A stretch of DNA of 11,573 nt from assembly GCA_964496595.1 (NCBI GenBank), contig CAZCAI010000145.1, positions 1 through 11,573 on the forward strand. The letters run 5' to 3'. Positions 1,243 through 9,975 of this stretch are shown in pieces. The position numbers were made by a program, and so were the translations under genes. The notes under the pieces were generated by a model. The model did not search any database, had not been told where the DNA came from, and saw nothing but the letters and a program-made list of their open reading frames with translations. Source of the stretch: an uncultured Anaerolineales bacterium. GTDB taxonomy: Bacteria > Chloroflexota > Anaerolineae > B4-G1 > SLSP01. The first letter of the stretch is position 1. Each line of letters starts with the position of its first letter.

Positions 1243-3498
1243 ATGGCTAAACAATCACAACCAATGCGGGATCAAGCGGATCAACAAATATCTCAGGGTC
1301 TGAATCAGCTCGAGGGCCGGGCGGCGCACACGATTGGGGAAGCGACGGCCACCTTAGAGATGTTGCGCACCAAGACGGATCGCGTCCGCGGGCTGATGGG
1401 GTTGTTCGGGTTTGGGCGGCGGATTTTGGTGCCGCCGGATGAAATTCACGTCGTCGTTGGCGACGGGCGGCATAGCCTGATCGCCTCTAAGCACAGTCAT
1501 GTCTTCGGTCAGACGGCGGATCGCGCGTCGATCTATTGGCTGAATCGGCTGACGCAGGTCATCAAGCTGAAGACCATCAGCTTTACCGTGCCCATTCGCG
1601 GCGCGGATGATGACGGCGTCCACGCCTTAGATAGCAGCAAGGTGAGCTTTAAGCTCTGGGCGCACGCCGTCGCCAAGCTGAACCCCGATAAAGCCGAAAT
1701 CGCCGCGCAGCGCGTCGGCTTGGACGCCACCAGCCTCATCAACACCATTACCGAGGTCGGCACGGCGGAGTTGGTCGCGGCCGGCGCGACGATGACCTTA
1801 GAGGAGATCATCGCCAACCACCAAAGGCTGGCCGAGATTGCCTTCCCGCAGGTCAACCAGATTCTCTCGGAACTGGGCTACGATCTGGCGCTGCTGACTA
1901 TCACCAAATTAGATGGCGTCGCCTATCGCAAGTTAGTCAATCAGGCCGAAGCTCGGATCTCCAAGGAGACCAGCATCGCCACCAACCGCGAGCAGGTCGC
2001 CGAGTTGCAGGATGACGAGGCGCGCCAGCGGCAGGAGGCCGAGATCAAGGCCGAGACGGAGAAGAAGTTAGCCGCCGAGCGGCTGGAGGCGGAGCGCGAG
2101 GTCGAGACCGCGACGCTCAATCAGCAGGAGAACTTGGCCGTCAAGCGGCACGAGGTGCAATTGCGCCACGTCTCGCGTGAGCAGGAGCAAGCGCGCGCGG
2201 GCCACGAAGTGGCGATGGAGAAGGTGGGGCTGGGGCGTCAGCAATCCGAGGCGGAGGTCGAGCGGGATGCTGAGTTGGAGCGCTTGAAGGCCGAGCGCCG
2301 GGCCGAGATCAATTTGGCCGAAACCGAGTCCGACGCGGATCGGTTGGCGCTAGAGCAGAAGCGTCAGATCGAGCGCGACGCGGAGCGGACGGAGGCGGAG
2401 GCCAGGCGCCTGCGCGAAGAAGAGTTGGCCGCCGCGCAGCGCGCCAAGGAGGTCGCGCTGGTGGAGGCGGAGCAGTTGGCCGAGTCGATGCGGATGGAGG
2501 CCGATGCCGAGACGAAAGCCGCGCTCGTCCGCGCCGAGGCAGAGACGAAGGCGGAGTTGATCCGCGCGGATGCGGAGGCGAACGCCACCGAGAAGCGCGC
2601 CAATGCGGCGAAGATCCGCGCCGAGGCGACGCGGGCCGAGACCGCCGCGCCGGGCCTGGCGGAGGCGGAGGTCGCAGCCGCGCGCGTCGAGGTCTCCGAG
2701 AAGCAGATCGCCGTCAACCGCGCCGAGGGTCTGGCCCAGGCCGAGGTCGCCAAGGCGCAGGCGGAAGCCGACGCCGACCGCGAGCGCCGGCTCAAAGAGG
2801 TCGAGATCGAGGCGCAGCGCCAACTGGTCGAACTCTATGACAAGGCGCCGGTCTTGGTAGAGATGGAGAAGCTCCGCATGCAGTACGAGCACGAGCGCGA
2901 ACTGACCCAAGTCCAGATGGAGACCTATCTCCAGGCATTCGAGGCGTTGGCGCCCAGCATGGAAGTGCGCATCTACGGCGGCGGGGATCAGACCACGCGC
3001 ATCATCACCGAGTTGATGCAACTCGCGCAGGGCGTGCGTTATCTGGGCGCGGAGGCGCCGGTGGTCGGGCGCATCTTAGAGGGCAAATCTGGGGTTCAAC
3101 AGCCGCTCTTCTCGCGGCTCTCTCATCTGGGGCCGTACTTCGAGGAGGCCGTGGCCGATATGAACCCGCGCATCTTCTCCAGCCTGCAGTTGGCCGACCT
3201 GATGGAGCGGCTGATGCCGGTCGTCGCCGGGCAGGAGGACATCGTCGCCGCGCTGAACCATCTCAAATCGGACGCGAGTTTCCGCGTGGTGGGCAACCTG
3301 CCCGTCGCGCCGCTCTTCCGCTTGTTGGGATTGGAGACGCCGCAATCTGGCCCCTCGGATATGATGATGGCCGGGGAAGAGGCGGCGAGCGAAGCCGAAG
3401 CAGAAGCCGAAGCAGAAGCCGAGGGCGAGGAAACAGCGGGTGAATCTGACATCGAGGCCTCGGAGGAAGCTGCCGGCCTCGATGCGCGGACGCCGTAA
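1243..3498 (+). CDS. Flotillin/SPFH (band 7) family protein of 751 aa. It has a very long Glu/Ala/Arg-rich coiled coil and an acidic EAEAEA tail, and no obvious N-terminal transmembrane hairpin.
   Basis: ATG at 1243 with GAGGAG at 1232-1237. The SPFH core is VPPDEIHVVVGDG...KLKTISFTVPIRGADDDGVHALDSSKVSFKLWAHAV...TMTLEEIIANHQRLAEIAFPQVNQILSELGYDLALLTITKLDG. It is followed by about 300 aa of EA/ER heptad-like repeats (the flotillin domain) and then the flotillin C-terminal-like MEVRIYGGGDQTTRIITELMQ. There is an extra tail of about 170 aa, including (GAAGCMGAAGCA)n at 3391-3423 encoding EAEAEAEAEAE. Confidence 0.8.
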   Translation: MAKQSQPMRDQADQQISQGLNQLEGRAAHTIGEATATLEMLRTKTDRVRGLMGLFGFGRRILVPPDEIHVVVGDGRHSLIASKHSHVFGQTADRASIYWLNRLTQVIKLKTISFTVPIRGADDDGVHALDSSKVSFKLWAHAVAKLNPDKAEIAAQRVGLDATSLINTITEVGTAELVAAGATMTLEEIIANHQRLAEIAFPQVNQILSELGYDLALLTITKLDGVAYRKLVNQAEARISKETSIATNREQVAELQDDEARQRQEAEIKAETEKKLAAERLEAEREVETATLNQQENLAVKRHEVQLRHVSREQEQARAGHEVAMEKVGLGRQQSEAEVERDAELERLKAERRAEINLAETESDADRLALEQKRQIERDAERTEAEARRLREEELAAAQRAKEVALVEAEQLAESMRMEADAETKAALVRAEAETKAELIRADAEANATEKRANAAKIRAEATRAETAAPGLAEAEVAAARVEVSEKQIAVNRAEGLAQAEVAKAQAEADADRERRLKEVEIEAQRQLVELYDKAPVLVEMEKLRMQYEHERELTQVQMETYLQAFEALAPSMEVRIYGGGDQTTRIITELMQLAQGVRYLGAEAPVVGRILEGKSGVQQPLFSRLSHLGPYFEEAVADMNPRIFSSLQLADLMERLMPVVAGQEDIVAALNHLKSDASFRVVGNLPVAPLFRLLGLETPQSGPSDMMMAGEEAASEAEAEAEAEAEGEETAGESDIEASEEAAGLDARTP
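3391..3423 (+). repeat. 12-nt tandem repeat gaagccgaagca x about 2.7, inside the flotillin 3' end. It encodes the EAEAEAEAEAE tail.
   Basis: Read directly. It is low-complexity coding sequence and prone to slippage. Confidence 0.8.
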
Positions 3499-3631: not shown

Positions 3632-4150
3632 ATGTCCGATAATGAGATTCCCATCGTCGCCTTTGTGGGGCGCTCCGGCGCGGGGAAGACGACGCTGTTG
3701 GAGCGCGTGATCGCCGCCTTAGATGTGCGCGGCGTTCGCGTGGCCGTCGTCAAGCACACGCACCACACCGGCCTGGCGACCGATCTGCCCGGCACGGACT
3801 CGCGGCGGCTGTGGGAGGCCGGCGCGCAGCACACGACGCTCTGGGCGCCGGATCGCGTCGCGCACACGCATCGCACCGCGTCGCCGCCGACGCTGGCGAC
3901 GGTCTTGCGCGACATCCACGACGTCGATGTGATCCTGATCGAAGGGGATAAGCACGGCGCACTCCCCAAGATTGAGGTCGTGCGTGCGGCTGTTGATCTC
4001 GCGCTGCTGGATATCGAAGGGCGCATCGCGTGCGTCACGGACGCGCCAGACTTAGCGTGGGAGGGCCCGCGCTTCGGCTTCGATGACGCGGGCGTCGCGG
4101 CGCTGGCCGATTTTATCCACAAGTTCGTAGTCAGGCACGAAACGAAGTGA
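3632..4150 (+). CDS. mobB: MobB-like P-loop GTPase (molybdopterin-guanine dinucleotide biosynthesis protein B family).
   Basis: ATG at 3632 with AGGAGG at 3621-3626. IPIVAFVGRSGAGKTTLLERVIAAL...VAVVKHTHH...DVILIEGDKHGALPKIEV closely parallels E. coli MobB (AIAAWSGTGKTTLLKKLIPAL...GLIKHTHH...LILVEGFKHEEIAKIVL). Confidence 0.85.
   Translation: MSDNEIPIVAFVGRSGAGKTTLLERVIAALDVRGVRVAVVKHTHHTGLATDLPGTDSRRLWEAGAQHTTLWAPDRVAHTHRTASPPTLATVLRDIHDVDVILIEGDKHGALPKIEVVRAAVDLALLDIEGRIACVTDAPDLAWEGPRFGFDDAGVAALADFIHKFVVRHETK
4123..4139. repeat. 17-bp direct repeat GTTCGTAGTCAGGCACG, copy 2 of 2, inside the last codons of mobB (encoding KFVVRHE).
   Basis: It is identical to 3585-3601. Read directly. Confidence 0.9.
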
Positions 4151-4175
4151 TGCGCTATTTTAGATCGGAGGCGAC

Positions 4176-4580
4176 ATGGGCAAGTGGGAAGAAATAGATC
4201 ACACGGCGGATTTGGCGCTGCATCTCTGGGCGGATGACCTGGCCGCTCTCTTCATCACGGCGGCGCGGGGGATGTTCTCGCTGGTGGCGGCGCCGCAGGA
4301 GGAGGGGACATCGCGCGCGCTGGCGATTTCACTGACGGCGTTGGACGTCGAGACCTTGTTAGTCGATTGGTTGAACGAGCTACTCTATCTCTCCGAGACC
4401 GAATCGCTCGTCTTCACCGGCTATGAACTCTCACATCTCACGCCCACCGCCTTAGAGGCGACGGTCACCGGTAAACCCGTGGCGATGTATTATAATTATA
4501 TCAAGGCGGCGACCTTCCATAATCTCTCTGTGGATATGACGCCGGACGGCTATGAGACGGAGATTGTCTTTGATATATGA
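4176..4580 (+). CDS. Archease (RtcB activator/chaperone).
   Basis: ATG at 4176 with GGAGG at 4165-4169, 25 nt after the mobB stop. MGKWEEIDHTADLALHLWADDLAALF...LLVDWLNELLYLSE...ATFHNLSV...YETEIVFDI matches the archease signature (KWE..EHTAD at the N-terminus, LL..WL.ELLYL in the middle, VFDI at the C-terminus). Confidence 0.85.
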   Translation: MGKWEEIDHTADLALHLWADDLAALFITAARGMFSLVAAPQEEGTSRALAISLTALDVETLLVDWLNELLYLSETESLVFTGYELSHLTPTALEATVTGKPVAMYYNYIKAATFHNLSVDMTPDGYETEIVFDI

Positions 4581-4589
4581 GTTGGCATA

Positions 4590-4610
4590 GGTCGGGATGC
4601 CATCCCGACC
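4590..4610 (+). promoter_or_regulatory. Perfect 21-nt palindrome GGTCGGGATGcCATCCCGACC between archease and rtcB, with no following T-tract. Candidate operator or RNA stem-loop.
   Basis: Read directly. The arms are 10/10 complementary, centred on 4600, and the palindrome ends 14 nt upstream of the rtcB AGGAGG. Confidence 0.4.
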
Positions 4611-4635
4611 CAGGAGCTATTCAAAGGAGGGCGCG

Positions 4636-6087
4636 ATGGTACAAAAGAACCAGTTTAAGCAAATCGATGAGTACACGTGGGAGTTGCACAAGAACTATGA
4701 CAGCCGGATGCGGGCGCCGGTGCGCATTTACGGCAACCGCGAAATTTTCGATCAGGCCTTTGGGGATCACTCGATCCAGCAATTGATTAACGTCTCGATG
4801 TTGCCGGGGATTGTGAAGTACGCGATGGCGATGCCCGACATGCACCAGGGCTACGGCTTCCCGATTGGGGGCGTCGCGGCGTTCGATTATGACGAGGGGA
4901 TTATCTCGCCTGGCGGCGTTGGATATGATATCAACTGCGGCGTGCGCATGCTGGCCTCGAACATCGAGTTCGAGGAGATCAAGCCGCACTTGAACGACCT
5001 GACGACGATGCTCTACCAGAACTGCCCCAGCGGTCTGGGCGGCGATGGCGCGGTGCAAGTCTCGACGGCCGAGATGGACGAGTTGCTGGAGGATGGCTCG
5101 GAGTGGGCGCGCCATCAGGGCTACGCCACCCGCGATGATCGGGCCCGGACGGAGGGTGGGGGGCGGCTGCCCGGCGCTCGCGCCGACGCGGTACCCTATC
5201 GCGCCAGGCAGCGGGGATTGTCCCAGGTCGGATCGCTCGGCTCCGGCAACCACTTCCTGGAGATCGACGTGATCGACGCTGTCTACGACGAGGAGGTCGC
5301 GGCGGTCTTCGGCCTGACGGCGGGCCAGATTGTGGTGCAAATTCACTGCGGCTCGCGTGGGTTGGGCCACGAGGTCTGCTCGCAATACCTGCGTCGCTTG
5401 CAAGATGCCCCGCGCCGTTACGACATCCCCATCCCCGACCGTGAACTCGTCGCCGCGCCCATCGAATCTGAAGAGGGCCAGGCGTACTTCGCCGCGATGG
5501 CGGCGGCCGCGAACTACGCCTTCGTCAACCGGCAGGTGCTGGCCCACTTTGCGCGTCGCACCTTCGAGCAGGTGCTGGCCGGCAAGGTCAGCGATTGGCA
5601 TCTCCAGCAGGTCTACGATGTGACCCACAATATAGCCAAGATCGAGGAGCATCAGGTGGGATCGGTGCGAAAGAAGCTGATCGTTCACCGCAAGGGCGCG
5701 ACGCGTGCCTTCCCGCCCGGCCACCCGGAGCTTTCGGAGGTCTATCAGCCGACGGGGCAGCCGGTTCTCGTGCCCGGCTCGATGGGGACGGCCTCCTACG
5801 TGCTCGTGGGCACGCAGTCGGCGATGGAGCGCACCTTCGGATCGAGCTGTCACGGCGCCGGTCGAACGATGAGCCGGCGGCAGGCAAAGAAGAAGACGCG
5901 CGGGGAGCAGGTGCGTCAGGAGCTAAATCAGGAGGGGATCACGGTACGGGCCGGCAGCATGCGTGGCCTGGCGGAGGAGTCGCCCGTCGCCTACAAGGAT
6001 GTGGACGTGGTGGTGGATTCCGTCGTCGGCGCGGGGATCGCCCGCAAAGTCGCCCGCGTGCATCCCGTGGCGGTGATCAAGGGGTGA
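4636..6087 (+). CDS. rtcB: RNA-splicing ligase RtcB (3'-phosphate/5'-OH RNA ligase).
   Basis: I prefer ATG 4636 (AGGAGG at 4625-4630) over the longer 4597 start in the ORF track. Conserved RtcB blocks are present: MPDMHQGYGFPIGGV, GYDINCGVR (the Asp/Cys metal ligands), GSLGSGNHFLE, IHCGSRGLGHEV, NYAFVNRQ, THNIAKIEEH and SCHGAGRTMSR. Confidence 0.9.
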   Translation: MVQKNQFKQIDEYTWELHKNYDSRMRAPVRIYGNREIFDQAFGDHSIQQLINVSMLPGIVKYAMAMPDMHQGYGFPIGGVAAFDYDEGIISPGGVGYDINCGVRMLASNIEFEEIKPHLNDLTTMLYQNCPSGLGGDGAVQVSTAEMDELLEDGSEWARHQGYATRDDRARTEGGGRLPGARADAVPYRARQRGLSQVGSLGSGNHFLEIDVIDAVYDEEVAAVFGLTAGQIVVQIHCGSRGLGHEVCSQYLRRLQDAPRRYDIPIPDRELVAAPIESEEGQAYFAAMAAAANYAFVNRQVLAHFARRTFEQVLAGKVSDWHLQQVYDVTHNIAKIEEHQVGSVRKKLIVHRKGATRAFPPGHPELSEVYQPTGQPVLVPGSMGTASYVLVGTQSAMERTFGSSCHGAGRTMSRRQAKKKTRGEQVRQELNQEGITVRAGSMRGLAEESPVAYKDVDVVVDSVVGAGIARKVARVHPVAVIKG

Positions 6088-7339: not shown

Positions 7340-7367
7340 AGTATATTACAGGCCATGGGAATGTCAA
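7340..7367 (-). promoter_or_regulatory. Candidate sigma70-type promoter on the minus strand for slyD-csp. The -35 TTGACA is the reverse complement of 7362-7367, with a 16-nt spacer, and the -10 TATACT is the reverse complement of 7340-7345.
   Basis: Read directly. The -35 is a perfect consensus. The predicted TSS of about 7333 gives an 84-nt 5'UTR containing the 7273-7305 hairpin. Confidence 0.35.
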
Positions 7368-7412: not shown

Positions 7413-8639
7413 CTATTTCGTGGCTAATTCCTCTTTTACGAGACCGCCGAGACGCTTGATGCCAATCTCAATCATCTCTGGCTTGGAGTTGCTGAAGTTG
7501 AGGCGCATGGCAGTGTGCCCGCCGTCGGCGTGGGGGAAGAAGTGGACGCCGGCCACATAGGCGACTTTATTCTCCACGGCTTTGGGGAAGAGCGCGGCGG
7601 TATCGATGGGTTCCGGCACCCGCGCCCAGAGGAATAACCCGCCCTGCGGACGAGTCCAACTGCTGCCCTCCGGCCAACTGGCTTCCAACGCCCTGAGCAT
7701 TGTATTGCGACGTTCCCGGTAGACATTGCAGATGCTCCGCACGTGGGCCTTGAGGATACCGCGCTGGGCGATATCGTTGGCGATCATCTGATCGAAGGTG
7801 CTGGTGTGCAGGTCGGCGCCCTGCTTGGCGCGGACGAGGCGCTGGACGATTTCCATCGGCCCCATGATCCACCCGATGCGCAGACCCGGGGTCAAGGTTT
7901 TGGAGAAAGTACCCAAATAGAGCGTGCGCTCCGGCGCCATCACCGAGATGGGGGTGATGTCCTCGCCTTCGTAGCGCAGCGCGCCGTAGGGATCATCCTC
8001 GACGATGATGAGATCGTACTTGCGGGCAAGCTCCACCAGATGCTTGCGACGATCCTCCGGCAGGGTGGTGCCGGCTGGATTGTGGAAGTTGGGAAGCACG
8101 TAGATGAAGCACGGCTTTTTCTCCTTGATCGTCTCTTCCAGTTGATCCACACACATGCCATGATCATCCAACGGCACGGTGGCGAATTGGGCCTCATAGG
8201 CGCGCCACGCCTGAATCGCGCCCAAGTAGGTGGGTTGAGCCGTCAGGATGGTGGTGCCCGGATCGATGAAGACCTTGCCAATCAGATCTAACGCCTGTTG
8301 GGAGCCGGTGGTGATGAGAATGTTATCCGGCCCATGCTGGATGCCATATTTGGCGACCGTCGCGGCCAGAAATTCGCGCAGCGGCGGATGGCCCTCGGTG
8401 GTGCTATATTGAAGCGCTTGCTTTGGCTCCTTGTGGAGCAGGTAGTTACACGCTTCCTCGATTTCGCGCACGGGGAACAGCTCCGGCGCCGGCAGCCCCC
8501 CGGCGAACGAGATGACCTCCGGCTGTTGGGTGACCTTGAGCAGCTCCCGGATGGCGGAGCTTCCCATTTTTCGGGCGCGCTGTGAGAGAAAGCGTTCCCA
8601 ATCGACTGGTCCGGTCGGTGAATTAGCGTATACCGTCAT
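7413..8639 (-). CDS. PLP-dependent class I aminotransferase (2-aminoadipate/aromatic/kynurenine aminotransferase family, LysN/ArAT-like).
   Basis: ATG at 8639 with GGAGG. SAIRELLK...ISFAGGLP near the N-terminus and GTFSKTLTPGLRIGWIMGP (PLP-lysine SK motif) are typical of this family. GC3 is high. Confidence 0.85.
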   Translation of the reverse strand: MTVYANSPTGPVDWERFLSQRARKMGSSAIRELLKVTQQPEVISFAGGLPAPELFPVREIEEACNYLLHKEPKQALQYSTTEGHPPLREFLAATVAKYGIQHGPDNILITTGSQQALDLIGKVFIDPGTTILTAQPTYLGAIQAWRAYEAQFATVPLDDHGMCVDQLEETIKEKKPCFIYVLPNFHNPAGTTLPEDRRKHLVELARKYDLIIVEDDPYGALRYEGEDITPISVMAPERTLYLGTFSKTLTPGLRIGWIMGPMEIVQRLVRAKQGADLHTSTFDQMIANDIAQRGILKAHVRSICNVYRERRNTMLRALEASWPEGSSWTRPQGGLFLWARVPEPIDTAALFPKAVENKVAYVAGVHFFPHADGGHTAMRLNFSNSKPEMIEIGIKRLGGLVKEELATK

Positions 8640-8916
8640 ACTTACCTCCTAAATACGGTTGGATATTATTGGATATGGGTACTGTTCAAAAAAATAACAC
8701 CTGCCAGATCTAGCCAGGCAGGTGTGGGGTCTGATACGAATCGCCGCGTCATAACGGCCAACGTCAGGCTAAATATGGCAATCATGTTGGTTAGGCCAAG
8801 AACAGATTGCATACGTGAATTTTTCTCCCCTCGAAAGTCAGAAAGGCAATGAACTGTGATATCGTGTGTGTCACGGCGTGAGGAACACAGCTGTTTTTCC
8901 ATCATGCTTCAGTTGT
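8640..8916 (-). promoter_or_regulatory. Long (about 275 nt) AT-rich 5' leader of the aminotransferase gene, ending in an intrinsic terminator. Candidate riboswitch/attenuator of unassigned class.
   Basis: It is bounded by the promoter at 8923-8951 and the start codon at 8639. It is about 48% GC against about 65% for the flanks. It contains an imperfect dyad GGAAcACAG|CTGTtTTTCC (8882-8900) at +16 to +34 of the transcript, and the terminator at 8688-8725. Confidence 0.45.
8688..8725 (-). terminator. Intrinsic-terminator-like hairpin plus U-tract located 48 nt upstream of the aminotransferase ATG (attenuator position).
   Basis: On the minus strand: ACACCTGCC, an 11-nt loop, GGCAGGTGT, then UAUUUUUUUG. 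On the plus strand the stem is 8697-8705 with 8717-8725 and A7 is at 8688-8694. Confidence 0.6.
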
Positions 8917-8922
8917 ACCTCA

Positions 8923-8951
8923 ATTGTAGAGGAGGGTGATCTACCCGTCAA
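8923..8951 (-). promoter_or_regulatory. Near-consensus sigma70-type promoter on the minus strand. The -35 TTGACG is the reverse complement of 8946-8951, with a 17-nt spacer, and the -10 TACAAT is the reverse complement of 8923-8928.
   Basis: Read directly. The predicted TSS is near 8916, and the promoter drives the leader plus aminotransferase. Confidence 0.5.
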
Positions 8952-9058
8952 CTGCCATTTGACGAAAAATGATGTGAGGAAGGGCAAAGGTGGGGGGATG
9001 CCCGATGCGAAGTACATGCTTGAAGCGTGACGCGCGCCTCTCCCCCTGGGCCATATAC

Positions 9059-9086
9059 TTGCTTGCCCCTTCCTCTGTGTTAGAAT
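9059..9086 (+). promoter_or_regulatory. Candidate promoter for the GT2 gene: -35 TTGCTT (9059-9064), 16-nt spacer, -10 TAGAAT (9081-9086). The -10 overlaps ATG 9085, so the transcript may be leaderless and start at ATG 9094.
   Basis: Read directly. There is no SD before either ATG, and ATG 9094 lies 7 nt after the -10. Confidence 0.35.
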
Positions 9087-9975
9087 GGCCTTAATGGACT
9101 TAGGCATCGTCATTGTGAACTATAATACGCGCCAACTCCTGCGCCGCTGCTTGGAAACCGTCTTCGCTACTCGGGGTGCGACCTTTCGCGTCTGTGTGGT
9201 GGATAATAACTCCCAGGATGGCAGCGCGGAGATGGTCGCCGAGACATTCCCCCAGGTGACGTTGATCCGCAATCGGCAGAACGTCGGGTATCCGGCGGCC
9301 AACAACCAGGGATTGCGGCGCCTGGAATTTACGGAGGGATCGTGGGCGGATGCGCCGGAATTCGGCCTGCTGCTCAACCCCGATACCGAAGTCCCGCCGG
9401 ACGCCTTCGCGCGGATGTTGGCGTTCGCCGAGGCGCACCCGCGCGCCGGCGTCATCGGCCCGAAGCTGGTGCGCCCCTCCGGCGATCTGGACCTGGCCTG
9501 CCGCCGCACCTTCCCCTCGCCCGAAGTCTCCTTCTATCGCATCACCGGACTCTCTAAGCTCTTCCCGCGCCATCGTCGCTTTGGGCAGTACAACCTCACC
9601 TTCCTGGACCCCGATCAAATGGCCGAGGTCGATGCCGTGGTCGGCGCCTTTATGCTCGTGCGCCGCGATGCGATGCGCGAGGTGGGCCTGCTAGATGATT
9701 CGTTCTTTATGTACGGCGAGGATCTGGACTGGGCCTACCGCATCAAGGCCGCCGGCTGGAACGTCTACTACAACCCGGAGGTCACCGTGCTGCACGTCAA
9801 GCGCGCGGCCAGCCGCCAGAACCCCAAATCCCGCGTCGAGTTCTGGCGCGCGATGGAGATCTTCTACCGCAAACACTATGCCGCGCAGACGCCGCGCTGG
9901 CTCCACTACGTGATCCTCTTTGCCGTGCGGGCGCAGACCCGCTGGATGGCCCTCCGGGTCAAGGCGGGGCTGTGA
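9085..9975 (+). CDS. Family 2 glycosyltransferase (rhamnosyltransferase/WbbL-like GT-A fold).
   Basis: GIVIVNYNTRQLLRRCL...VCVVDNNSQDGS...NRQNVGYPAANNQG...LLNPDTEV (the D-x-D region) and FFMYGEDLDWAYR are typical GT2 blocks. The alternative start is ATG 9094. Confidence 0.85.
   Translation: MALMDLGIVIVNYNTRQLLRRCLETVFATRGATFRVCVVDNNSQDGSAEMVAETFPQVTLIRNRQNVGYPAANNQGLRRLEFTEGSWADAPEFGLLLNPDTEVPPDAFARMLAFAEAHPRAGVIGPKLVRPSGDLDLACRRTFPSPEVSFYRITGLSKLFPRHRRFGQYNLTFLDPDQMAEVDAVVGAFMLVRRDAMREVGLLDDSFFMYGEDLDWAYRIKAAGWNVYYNPEVTVLHVKRAASRQNPKSRVEFWRAMEIFYRKHYAAQTPRWLHYVILFAVRAQTRWMALRVKAGL

Follow-up and report, generated by a model that had tools for sequence, protein, structure and literature searches.

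A leader open reading frame running through a conserved intrinsic terminator: a candidate translation-coupled attenuator upstream of an aminotransferase gene in Anaerolineae

What controls transcription of the gene for a class I/II pyridoxal-phosphate (PLP) aminotransferase in an uncultured Anaerolineales bacterium? The gene (7413–8639, minus strand) lies on an 11,573-nt contig (GenBank CAZCAI010000145.1), which was analysed over its full length and is referred to here as the window. It is preceded by an AT-rich intergenic region (8640–9084). From the letters of this region alone, the original prediction had proposed a riboswitch-like leader, possibly of a new RNA class, with an attenuator, either of the leader-peptide kind or combined with an operator, as the fallback. 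The window was compared with 91 related loci. The leader carries a short open reading frame (ORF) that runs through a conserved intrinsic terminator, and the region is interpreted, with moderate confidence, as the aminotransferase promoter followed by a translation-coupled transcription attenuator of the pyrBI type. This interpretation is close to the fallback, which had missed the upstream ORF.

Only one sigma-70-like site was called in 8300–9400, with 10 of 12 consensus matches, where shuffled sequences gave 0.7 ± 0.7 sites. It is the aminotransferase promoter, located on the minus strand at 8923–8951, with the -35 element TTGACG at 8951–8946 and the -10 element TACAAT at 8928–8923 separated by 17 nt. 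Hexamers and spacing are kept at the orthologues, nearly all of which carry TTGACn-16/17-TA(C/G)AAT, and the near-consensus promoter of the original prediction is thereby confirmed. From the end of the -10 element to the aminotransferase ATG (8639) there are 283 nt; with transcription predicted to start near 8916, the leader is about 277 nt long. Its AT-richness also holds, as the GC fraction is 0.465–0.51 over 8500–8999 against 0.555–0.695 in the flanking coding sequence.

The leader ends in a hairpin with a 9-bp stem and an 11-nt loop, the arms being ACACCUGCC (8725–8717) and GGCAGGUGU (8705–8697), followed directly by the U-tract UAUUUUUUU (8696–8688). The end of the U-run is 48 nt from the aminotransferase ATG, as had been predicted, and both the fold and the covariation among orthologues identify 8688–8725 (minus strand) as a conserved intrinsic terminator in attenuator position, having the G+C-rich hairpin, the adjacent U-tract and the conserved structure expected of one. 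When folded alone, the hairpin has an energy of -16.3 kcal/mol (z = -3.36), and none of 200 shuffles was as stable. The automated terminator scan accepts loops of up to 8 nt and hence skipped it. In the window and its three closest relatives (L001–L003; Anaerolineales/Chloroflexota metagenome-assembled genomes), whose aminotransferases are 91–93% identical to that of the window, the stem is invariant and the loop variable. Identity to about 80 other aminotransferases is 64–77%. Promoter and terminator are thus both beyond chance expectation, and both are kept at orthologous loci.

Since the upstream neighbour, a family-2 glycosyltransferase gene (9085–9975), is divergent, the terminator cannot belong to another gene, and the aminotransferase gene is transcribed only through it. 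The spacer between terminator and gene (8640–8687, minus strand) contains the upstream ORF's stop codon (8668–8666) and the aminotransferase Shine-Dalgarno (SD) sequence AGGAGG (8650–8645). An additional promoter in this spacer was considered and judged unlikely: none was called in 8640–8687, although a weak TTGAAC-15-TAATAT match there might act as one, and several other families have just 22–28 nt between terminator and start codon.

Orthologous hairpins are present 22–57 nt before the gene in 36 loci, and the leader terminators of the different lineages have energies of -9 to -22 kcal/mol. In a core-aligned set of 16 distinct hairpins, the CCUG/CAGG core of the stem is invariant (16/16) and the adjacent pairs covary. 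Double-sided changes were seen at 5 of 10 stem pairs, with 27 cells against 9.6 ± 2.3 in shuffles (0/500). The covariation score is 0.494 against 0.168, with slid controls at or below 0.17; the aligned set had been picked for pairing, which raises this score, although a generic terminator rule had originally identified the hairpins. Comparison of the orthologues, which the original prediction had proposed as a check for covarying stems and an antiterminator, yielded a covarying terminator stem and no alternative pairing for its 5' arm.

The upstream ORF of the window (8666–8812, minus strand), which comes from the ORF list and is supported by codon comparison, has 48 codons and a stop. It begins MQSVLGLTNMIAIFSLTLAVM..., encodes the leader peptide MQSVLGLTNMIAIFSLTLAVMTRRFVSDPTPAWLDLAGVIFLNSTHIQ, and continues through the terminator and U-tract. 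In the window and L001–L003, a highly conserved stretch starts at its first codon, from ATGCAATCTGTT (8812). Over the first 28 codons, 28 of the 76 differing codon pairs in these four sequences are synonymous (37%), with no stop codon. When the same span is read in the shifted frames, only 7 of 67 (10%, with 17 stops) and 1 of 64 (2%, with 3 stops) are synonymous. The ORF has internal indels of 9 and 12 nt, and the variable columns number 12, 9 and 22 at the three codon positions. The ORF is under coding selection. The stop is in the 5' arm of the terminator in L001 and in the loop in L002, and L003 reads on; because the frames diverge between loci after about codon 28, selection on the peptide applies to its hydrophobic core only. 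An in-frame ATG at 8905 would extend the ORF to 79 codons (8905–8666). This longer ORF was rejected as a conserved unit, its first 31 codons being broken by 10–11-nt indels in L001 and L003, and a search of 5.8 billion proteins returned no homologue other than itself.

The part of the leader that precedes the 48-codon ORF (8813–8916, minus strand) was delimited by aligning the window with L001–L003 and is an untranslated segment specific to this lineage. It is non-coding, as judged from its 10–11-nt indels. The first 105 nt of the transcript vary among the four sequences and contain 11-nt repeats of differing copy number. The 11 nt holding the -10 element (ACAATTGAGGT) are tandemly repeated just downstream of it (window 8895–8927, minus strand; L001 2712–2760), in about two degenerate copies in the window, 3–4 in L001, one in L002 and two in L003. 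In the window transcript the degenerate copies fall at 8916–8895. The repeats create TATGAT/TACGAT elements in the early transcript, which may act as sigma-dependent pause sites. Further downstream are an SD-like element, GAGGGGAG (8832–8825), and a conserved hairpin, GCAAUCUGUU / AACAUGAUUGC (8778–8810, minus strand), which was recognised from alignment and fold and includes the G of the upstream-ORF AUG. Across the four sequences its 10 pairs do not change, whereas the loop does (-9.9 kcal/mol, z = -2.52). No covariation is present in these four sequences, and the structure is inseparable from the coding conservation.

Is the arrangement of ORF and terminator peculiar to this lineage? Among the 86 loci that could be evaluated for leader class, 36 have a long leader with a terminator, 23 have a promoter 33–67 nt before the gene and no terminator, and 12 have an intermediate leader; at five the leader is long but has no terminator under the strict rule, and at ten no promoter was found. 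The terminator-bearing leaders form 13 families that cannot be aligned with one another by blastn, the leader sequence not being conserved between lineages. An ATG ORF of 27–60 codons is nevertheless present in all 13. It usually starts 4–13 nt after the -10 element, and such ORFs look leaderless; a low frequency of leaderless genes has been predicted for Chloroflexi (PMC3160421). In one clade the start is 16–23 nt after the -10 element, behind AGGAG, and the exceptions are the lineage of the window and L055/L061, where this distance is 111 nt. The ORF meets the terminator in all 13 lineages. In 11 families, scored by script, the last base of the stop codon is 1–69 nt past the first base of the stem and never upstream of it, and in the others, examined by hand, the stop lies in the terminator loop (L015) or 5 nt before an extended stem (L025/L065). 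With dinucleotide shuffles, the probability that the longest ATG ORF reaches the terminator was 0.003–0.3 at individual loci. Combined by Fisher's method across the 13 families, of which three could not be evaluated and entered with p = 1, these values give 1.1e-6. A blind scan of both strands of the 92 loci plus the window (958 kb) returned 36 occurrences of promoter, ORF and terminator together, all of them before the aminotransferase gene. A type I toxin was also considered and rejected, given the syntenic position before one gene and the lack of any copy elsewhere in the 958 kb.

In L082 (1466–1500) and in L007, L014 and L056 (upstream of 3001/1501), ORF and terminator are exactly absent, and close relatives of these loci bear the leader. 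In the cassette-free relatives the SD region of the upstream ORF (GTAGGAGACGAAATCT) is fused to the aminotransferase SD. A GC-rich replacement of 242 nt is found in L022/L063, and an insert of about 190 nt separates terminator and gene in L040 and L027. Three tandem terminator-like repeats (GAGGGGAACGCCAGTTCCCCGCTTTTAG) are present upstream of the aminotransferase promoter in L023 (about 180–400) and L064.

The peptides encoded by the leader ORFs are hydrophobic in all families and have no sequence in common between families. T occupies 47% of second codon positions, against 21–22% of first and third positions, and the average hydropathy of the ORF frame, 0.86, compares with 0.17 and -0.37 for the two alternative frames. 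Leu makes up 20.4% of leader-peptide residues, compared with 9.8% in the aminotransferase, and Leu, Ile, Val, Met and Phe together account for about 47%. CUU/CUA/UUA supply 41% of the Leu codons (15% in the gene), AUA 34% of the Ile codons (3% in the gene) and GUU/GUA 70% of the Val codons (25% in the gene). The codon choice of the leader ORFs is thus poor for these GC-rich genomes. Runs of Leu/Ile/Val occur in some families (LLIIIILL in L005) and at no fixed position; the peptide of the window has none, its longest stretch of these residues being two.

The position of the ORF suggests how the terminator may be controlled. It ends at or beyond the terminator, as in pyrBI and opposite to the amino-acid attenuators, from which we infer a translation-coupled attenuator. 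Transcription would begin at about 8916, and the leader RNA would present the short, hydrophobic, rare-codon ORF (8812–8666) to the ribosome. The ORF extends through the terminator (8725–8688), which every transcript of the gene has to pass. A ribosome close behind RNA polymerase would cover the 5' arm of the hairpin; the terminator would then fail to form and the gene would be transcribed. If translation of the upstream ORF were absent, late or stalled, the hairpin would form and transcription would end. The ribosome would thereby suppress termination at the leader hairpin. The rare Leu, Ile and Val codons suggest the supply of the corresponding charged transfer RNAs (tRNAs) as the pace-setter of translation. 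With ample amino acids, an aminotransferase that is probably catabolic and of broad specificity would be switched on, and a switch that is on in times of plenty would be sensible for an enzyme resembling the catabolic, broad-specificity enzymes of Thermococcales. In the lineage of the window, the long 5' untranslated region (UTR), the distant SD-like element (8832–8825) and the AUG hairpin may form an extra gate at initiation.

Previous studies in Escherichia coli have described the behaviour that this interpretation needs. A stop codon placed 5 bp before a terminator reduced termination from about 90% to below 10%, and full termination required more than 27 nt (PMC4824070; PMC5021804). Uncoupling of translation abolished this repression of termination by a nearby stop codon (PMC4824070). 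In pyrBI the terminator is inside the leader ORF (PMC4824070; PMC5021804), and tight coupling across pyrL is needed to prevent it (PMC5021804). The present leader resembles the pyrL leader in having an ORF that passes through an intrinsic terminator, with no need of an antiterminator helix. In pyrBI the closely coupled ribosome prevents the hairpin (PMC4824070, PMC5021804); here such a role is proposed by analogy. Other features differ. The pyrBI leader senses uridine triphosphate through pausing of the polymerase at U-rich sites and controls pyrimidine genes, whereas here the gene is that of an aminotransferase, and no feature for sensing nucleoside triphosphates was identified in this leader. 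Unlike in pyrBI, a hydrophobic peptide is encoded with many rare codons, and the mRNA looks leaderless in many lineages. The element may therefore work like pyrBI while lying outside the pyrBI regulon. Leaderless short ORFs that are the first cistron and a ribosome-dependent sensor for the genes behind them are also known from the polycysteine ORFs of mycobacteria (bioRxiv 10.1101/834739). Those act on translation, whereas the present leader has an intrinsic terminator and no run of a single codon.

Several observations weigh against an attenuator of the pyrBI type. Ribosomes rarely catch the polymerase within the first 100 bp (PMC4824070), so that suppression of the terminator would need a pause of the polymerase. 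In most lineages, structure in the 60-nt segment preceding the terminator exceeds that of shuffled sequence (mean z = -1.63, t-test p = 0.003), and the segment may serve as a pause hairpin that keeps ribosome and polymerase in step; in the window itself it has no unusual structure (z = -0.17). The ORF of the window's lineage is atypical, since it starts 111 nt after the -10 element, its SD-like element is 12 nt from the AUG and the AUG is inside a hairpin. In L002 and L003 its tail falls in different frames. Between families there is neither conservation of peptide sequence nor a fixed run of regulatory codons, and a real small membrane protein could have the same hydrophobic composition. Occlusion of the hairpin by the ribosome leaves the invariance of the CCUG/CAGG core unaccounted for. 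The selection of hairpins for pairing, mentioned with the covariation score, belongs with these points.

A tentative extension of the pyrBI-type interpretation would give the peptide an active part. The nascent chain, hydrophobic and translated from rare codons, might gauge the supply of branched-chain aminoacyl-tRNAs, or report membrane insertion or arrest. Together with a sequence-specific CCUG/CAGG core, it would then represent an undescribed class of ribosome-dependent attenuator for a broad-specificity aminotransferase across Anaerolineae, with initiation gated as well by the structured 5' UTR in the lineage of the window.

The same peptides could be read in the opposite sense, as those of an attenuator of the leu/ilv/trp type, in which a starved ribosome stalls at the Leu/Ile/Val codons, an antiterminator forms and a biosynthetic, branched-chain-type aminotransferase is switched on. 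Their richness in Leu, Ile and Val and their rare codons are like those of ilvL, leuL and the upstream ORF (uORF) of the Corynebacterium ilvB-II motif, a motif first taken for a structured non-coding RNA (PMC10272879), and here as there the ORF is accompanied by a terminator and a gene of amino-acid metabolism. In several lineages a second hairpin, inside the ORF and with some compensatory changes, precedes the terminator, and three families show a likeness between its 3' arm and the terminator's 5' arm. An alternative pairing between the two sets of arms, suggested by eye in these families, was nevertheless rejected, as duplex statistics gave it no support. The 5' arm of the terminator has no better-than-chance partner upstream in any of 25 leaders (p 0.06–0.99 against shuffles), and in the lineage of the window the duplex tends to be worse than in shuffles (p 0.68–0.99). 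Leaders folded without the 3' arm of the terminator yielded no consistent partner for the 5' arm, and consensus folding gave no alternative pairing with the terminator; no antiterminator helix could be detected in these leaders. The geometry differs too. Amino-acid attenuators separate the terminator from the leader ORF by over 20 bp, which prevents its repression by a ribosome sitting at the stop codon (PMC4824070), whereas here the stop lies at or inside the terminator. The ilvL, leuL and ilvB-II leaders have both the antiterminator pairing and the wide spacing (PMC4824070), and neither is present here. No fixed tandem run of one codon was found either. An attenuator of this type is unlikely.

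It may instead be that the ORF encodes a small membrane protein in its own right and the terminator belongs to this gene, with constitutive leakage supplying the aminotransferase and no signal being sensed. A hydrophobic segment of helix length, coding selection, and a promoter and terminator flanking the ORF would agree with this. However, it is the arrangement and not the peptide sequence that is kept between families, the C-terminal frame varies within a single lineage, and the codons used are ill adapted. In every case the ORF runs into the terminator, and the search of 5.8 billion proteins matched nothing beyond the sequence of the window itself. That L082 and L007, close relatives of cassette-bearing loci, lack the cassette cleanly argues against an essential product. 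A membrane protein gene is improbable to about the same degree as an attenuator with antiterminator.

The terminator core raises a further alternative, factor-dependent attenuation, in which an RNA-binding protein or other trans factor reads the CCUG/CAGG hairpin, possibly together with a transcription factor bound upstream of the -35 element. The core, invariant in the 16 aligned hairpins and kept across the 13 leader families, is found in 26 of 30 leader terminators against none of 63 other terminator-like hairpins at the same loci, and a generic clade-wide terminator motif was rejected on this account. Its constraint is not a coding one, since among the ORFs of the window's lineage each of the three phases is found across the core. 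Upstream of the promoter, a 37-nt block directly adjoining the -35 element (TTTGCCCTTCCTCACATCATTTTTCGTCAAATGGCAG; 8952–8988, minus strand) is invariant in the window and L001–L003, beyond which the sequence cannot be aligned among the four. The block partly resembles one conserved in another clade, GAAGAAAGTCACGTCATTCAGnCACAGATAGCGT (TCAC.TCATT...GTCA/GCACA...TTGAC), which is found there with or without the leader. It is a candidate site for a transcription factor or an UP element, and a possible operator other than the dyad discussed below. Against a trans factor, the window has no linked candidate for a regulator gene, the invariance of the core could come from common descent combined with the constraint on the stem, and the conserved ORF would be left unexplained. 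Factor-dependent attenuation is considered quite improbable.

Least supported is the reading that the original prediction had preferred. In a riboswitch or other RNA-only sensor, termination would be governed by a ligand-binding fold of the leader. A promoter followed by a long leader and a terminator has the right geometry for this, and in the lineage of the window the leader has 105 additional nt at its 5' end that include conserved hairpins. Scans with Rfam models gave no match at gathering thresholds over the whole window and none at E ≤ 10 in 8560–9160, the T-box model among them. The fold energy of the whole leader is that of shuffled sequence, with no unusual structure (z = -0.34). No riboswitch fold supported by covariation was obtained, as consensus folds of the leaders gave local hairpins and the terminator only. 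Nothing but the terminator is conserved across families in sequence or structure, no alternative pairing involves it, and in most lineages the ORF fills the entire leader of about 100 nt. A new class of riboswitch is thus very unlikely. The imperfect dyad noted in the early transcript, GGAAAAACAG|CUGUGUUCC (8900–8882), is present. It is weak (-3.3 kcal/mol, z = -0.92) and not conserved in L001–L003, and the operator role suggested for it was rejected, since it is neither conserved nor stable. The leader described as riboswitch-like is real and conserved, and is reclassified as a probable leader-ORF attenuator of unusual geometry.

The enzyme itself (Pfam PF00155) falls in the LysN / KAT-II / multiple-substrate group. 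Its closest solved relatives are PH0207 of Pyrococcus (3aov, 1.6e-113) and the multiple-substrate aminotransferase of Thermococcus (1wst, 1.6e-109); the 2-aminoadipate aminotransferase of Thermus (2egy) matches at 8.5e-101. No NCBIfam equivalog reached its cutoff for the aminotransferase. The description 'LysN-type' is one of family resemblance and not of assigned function, and no lysine-pathway genes are found among the window neighbours in the Pfam annotation. In Thermus thermophilus, a leader peptide with tandem Lys codons forms an attenuator of the lysine cluster, tied to the 2-aminoadipate pathway that is the home of LysN-type aminotransferases. Unlike that leader, the peptides described here are not Lys-rich, and their gene has no lysine-pathway neighbours in the window. 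The aminotransferase gene is probably monocistronic, as the FKBP-type isomerase gene downstream of it has its own promoter, TTGACA-16-TATACT (7340–7367, minus strand).

Some features of the other genes were also observed. The divergent glycosyltransferase gene looks leaderless: on the plus strand at 9059–9096, TTGCTT is followed after 16 nt by TGT-TAGAAT (9081–9086) and, after a further 7 nt, by an ATG at 9094, the annotated ATG at 9085 overlapping the -10 element. The arrangement TGCTAGAATG-N6-ATG recurs before the glycosyltransferase gene at many orthologous loci (L008, L013, L035, L037, L050 and others). Elsewhere in the window, a 751-codon ORF (1243–3498, plus strand) has no Pfam or NCBIfam match, and genes for a MobB-like NTPase, archease and the RNA ligase RtcB stand in a row (3632–6087, plus strand), the upstream partner being an unusual one for this RNA-repair pair.

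Digesters and sediments are rich in Anaerolineae. To our knowledge, hardly any work has addressed gene regulation in Chloroflexota, and a search of the literature turned up no account of such an element in Chloroflexi. A cassette of uORF and terminator that recurs before a single enzyme gene and is cleanly gained and lost between close relatives would rank with the first cis-regulatory devices to be defined in Anaerolineae. Besides pyrBI, it would be a natural, non-enterobacterial example of a terminator placed inside a leader ORF and operating without an antiterminator. The case also illustrates that riboswitch-like leaders can be upstream ORFs in disguise, as with ilvB-II in Corynebacterium. 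For the enzyme family, the leader would offer a handle on whether the role of this LysN/KAT-II-type aminotransferase is catabolic, with the gene on when amino acids are plentiful, or biosynthetic.

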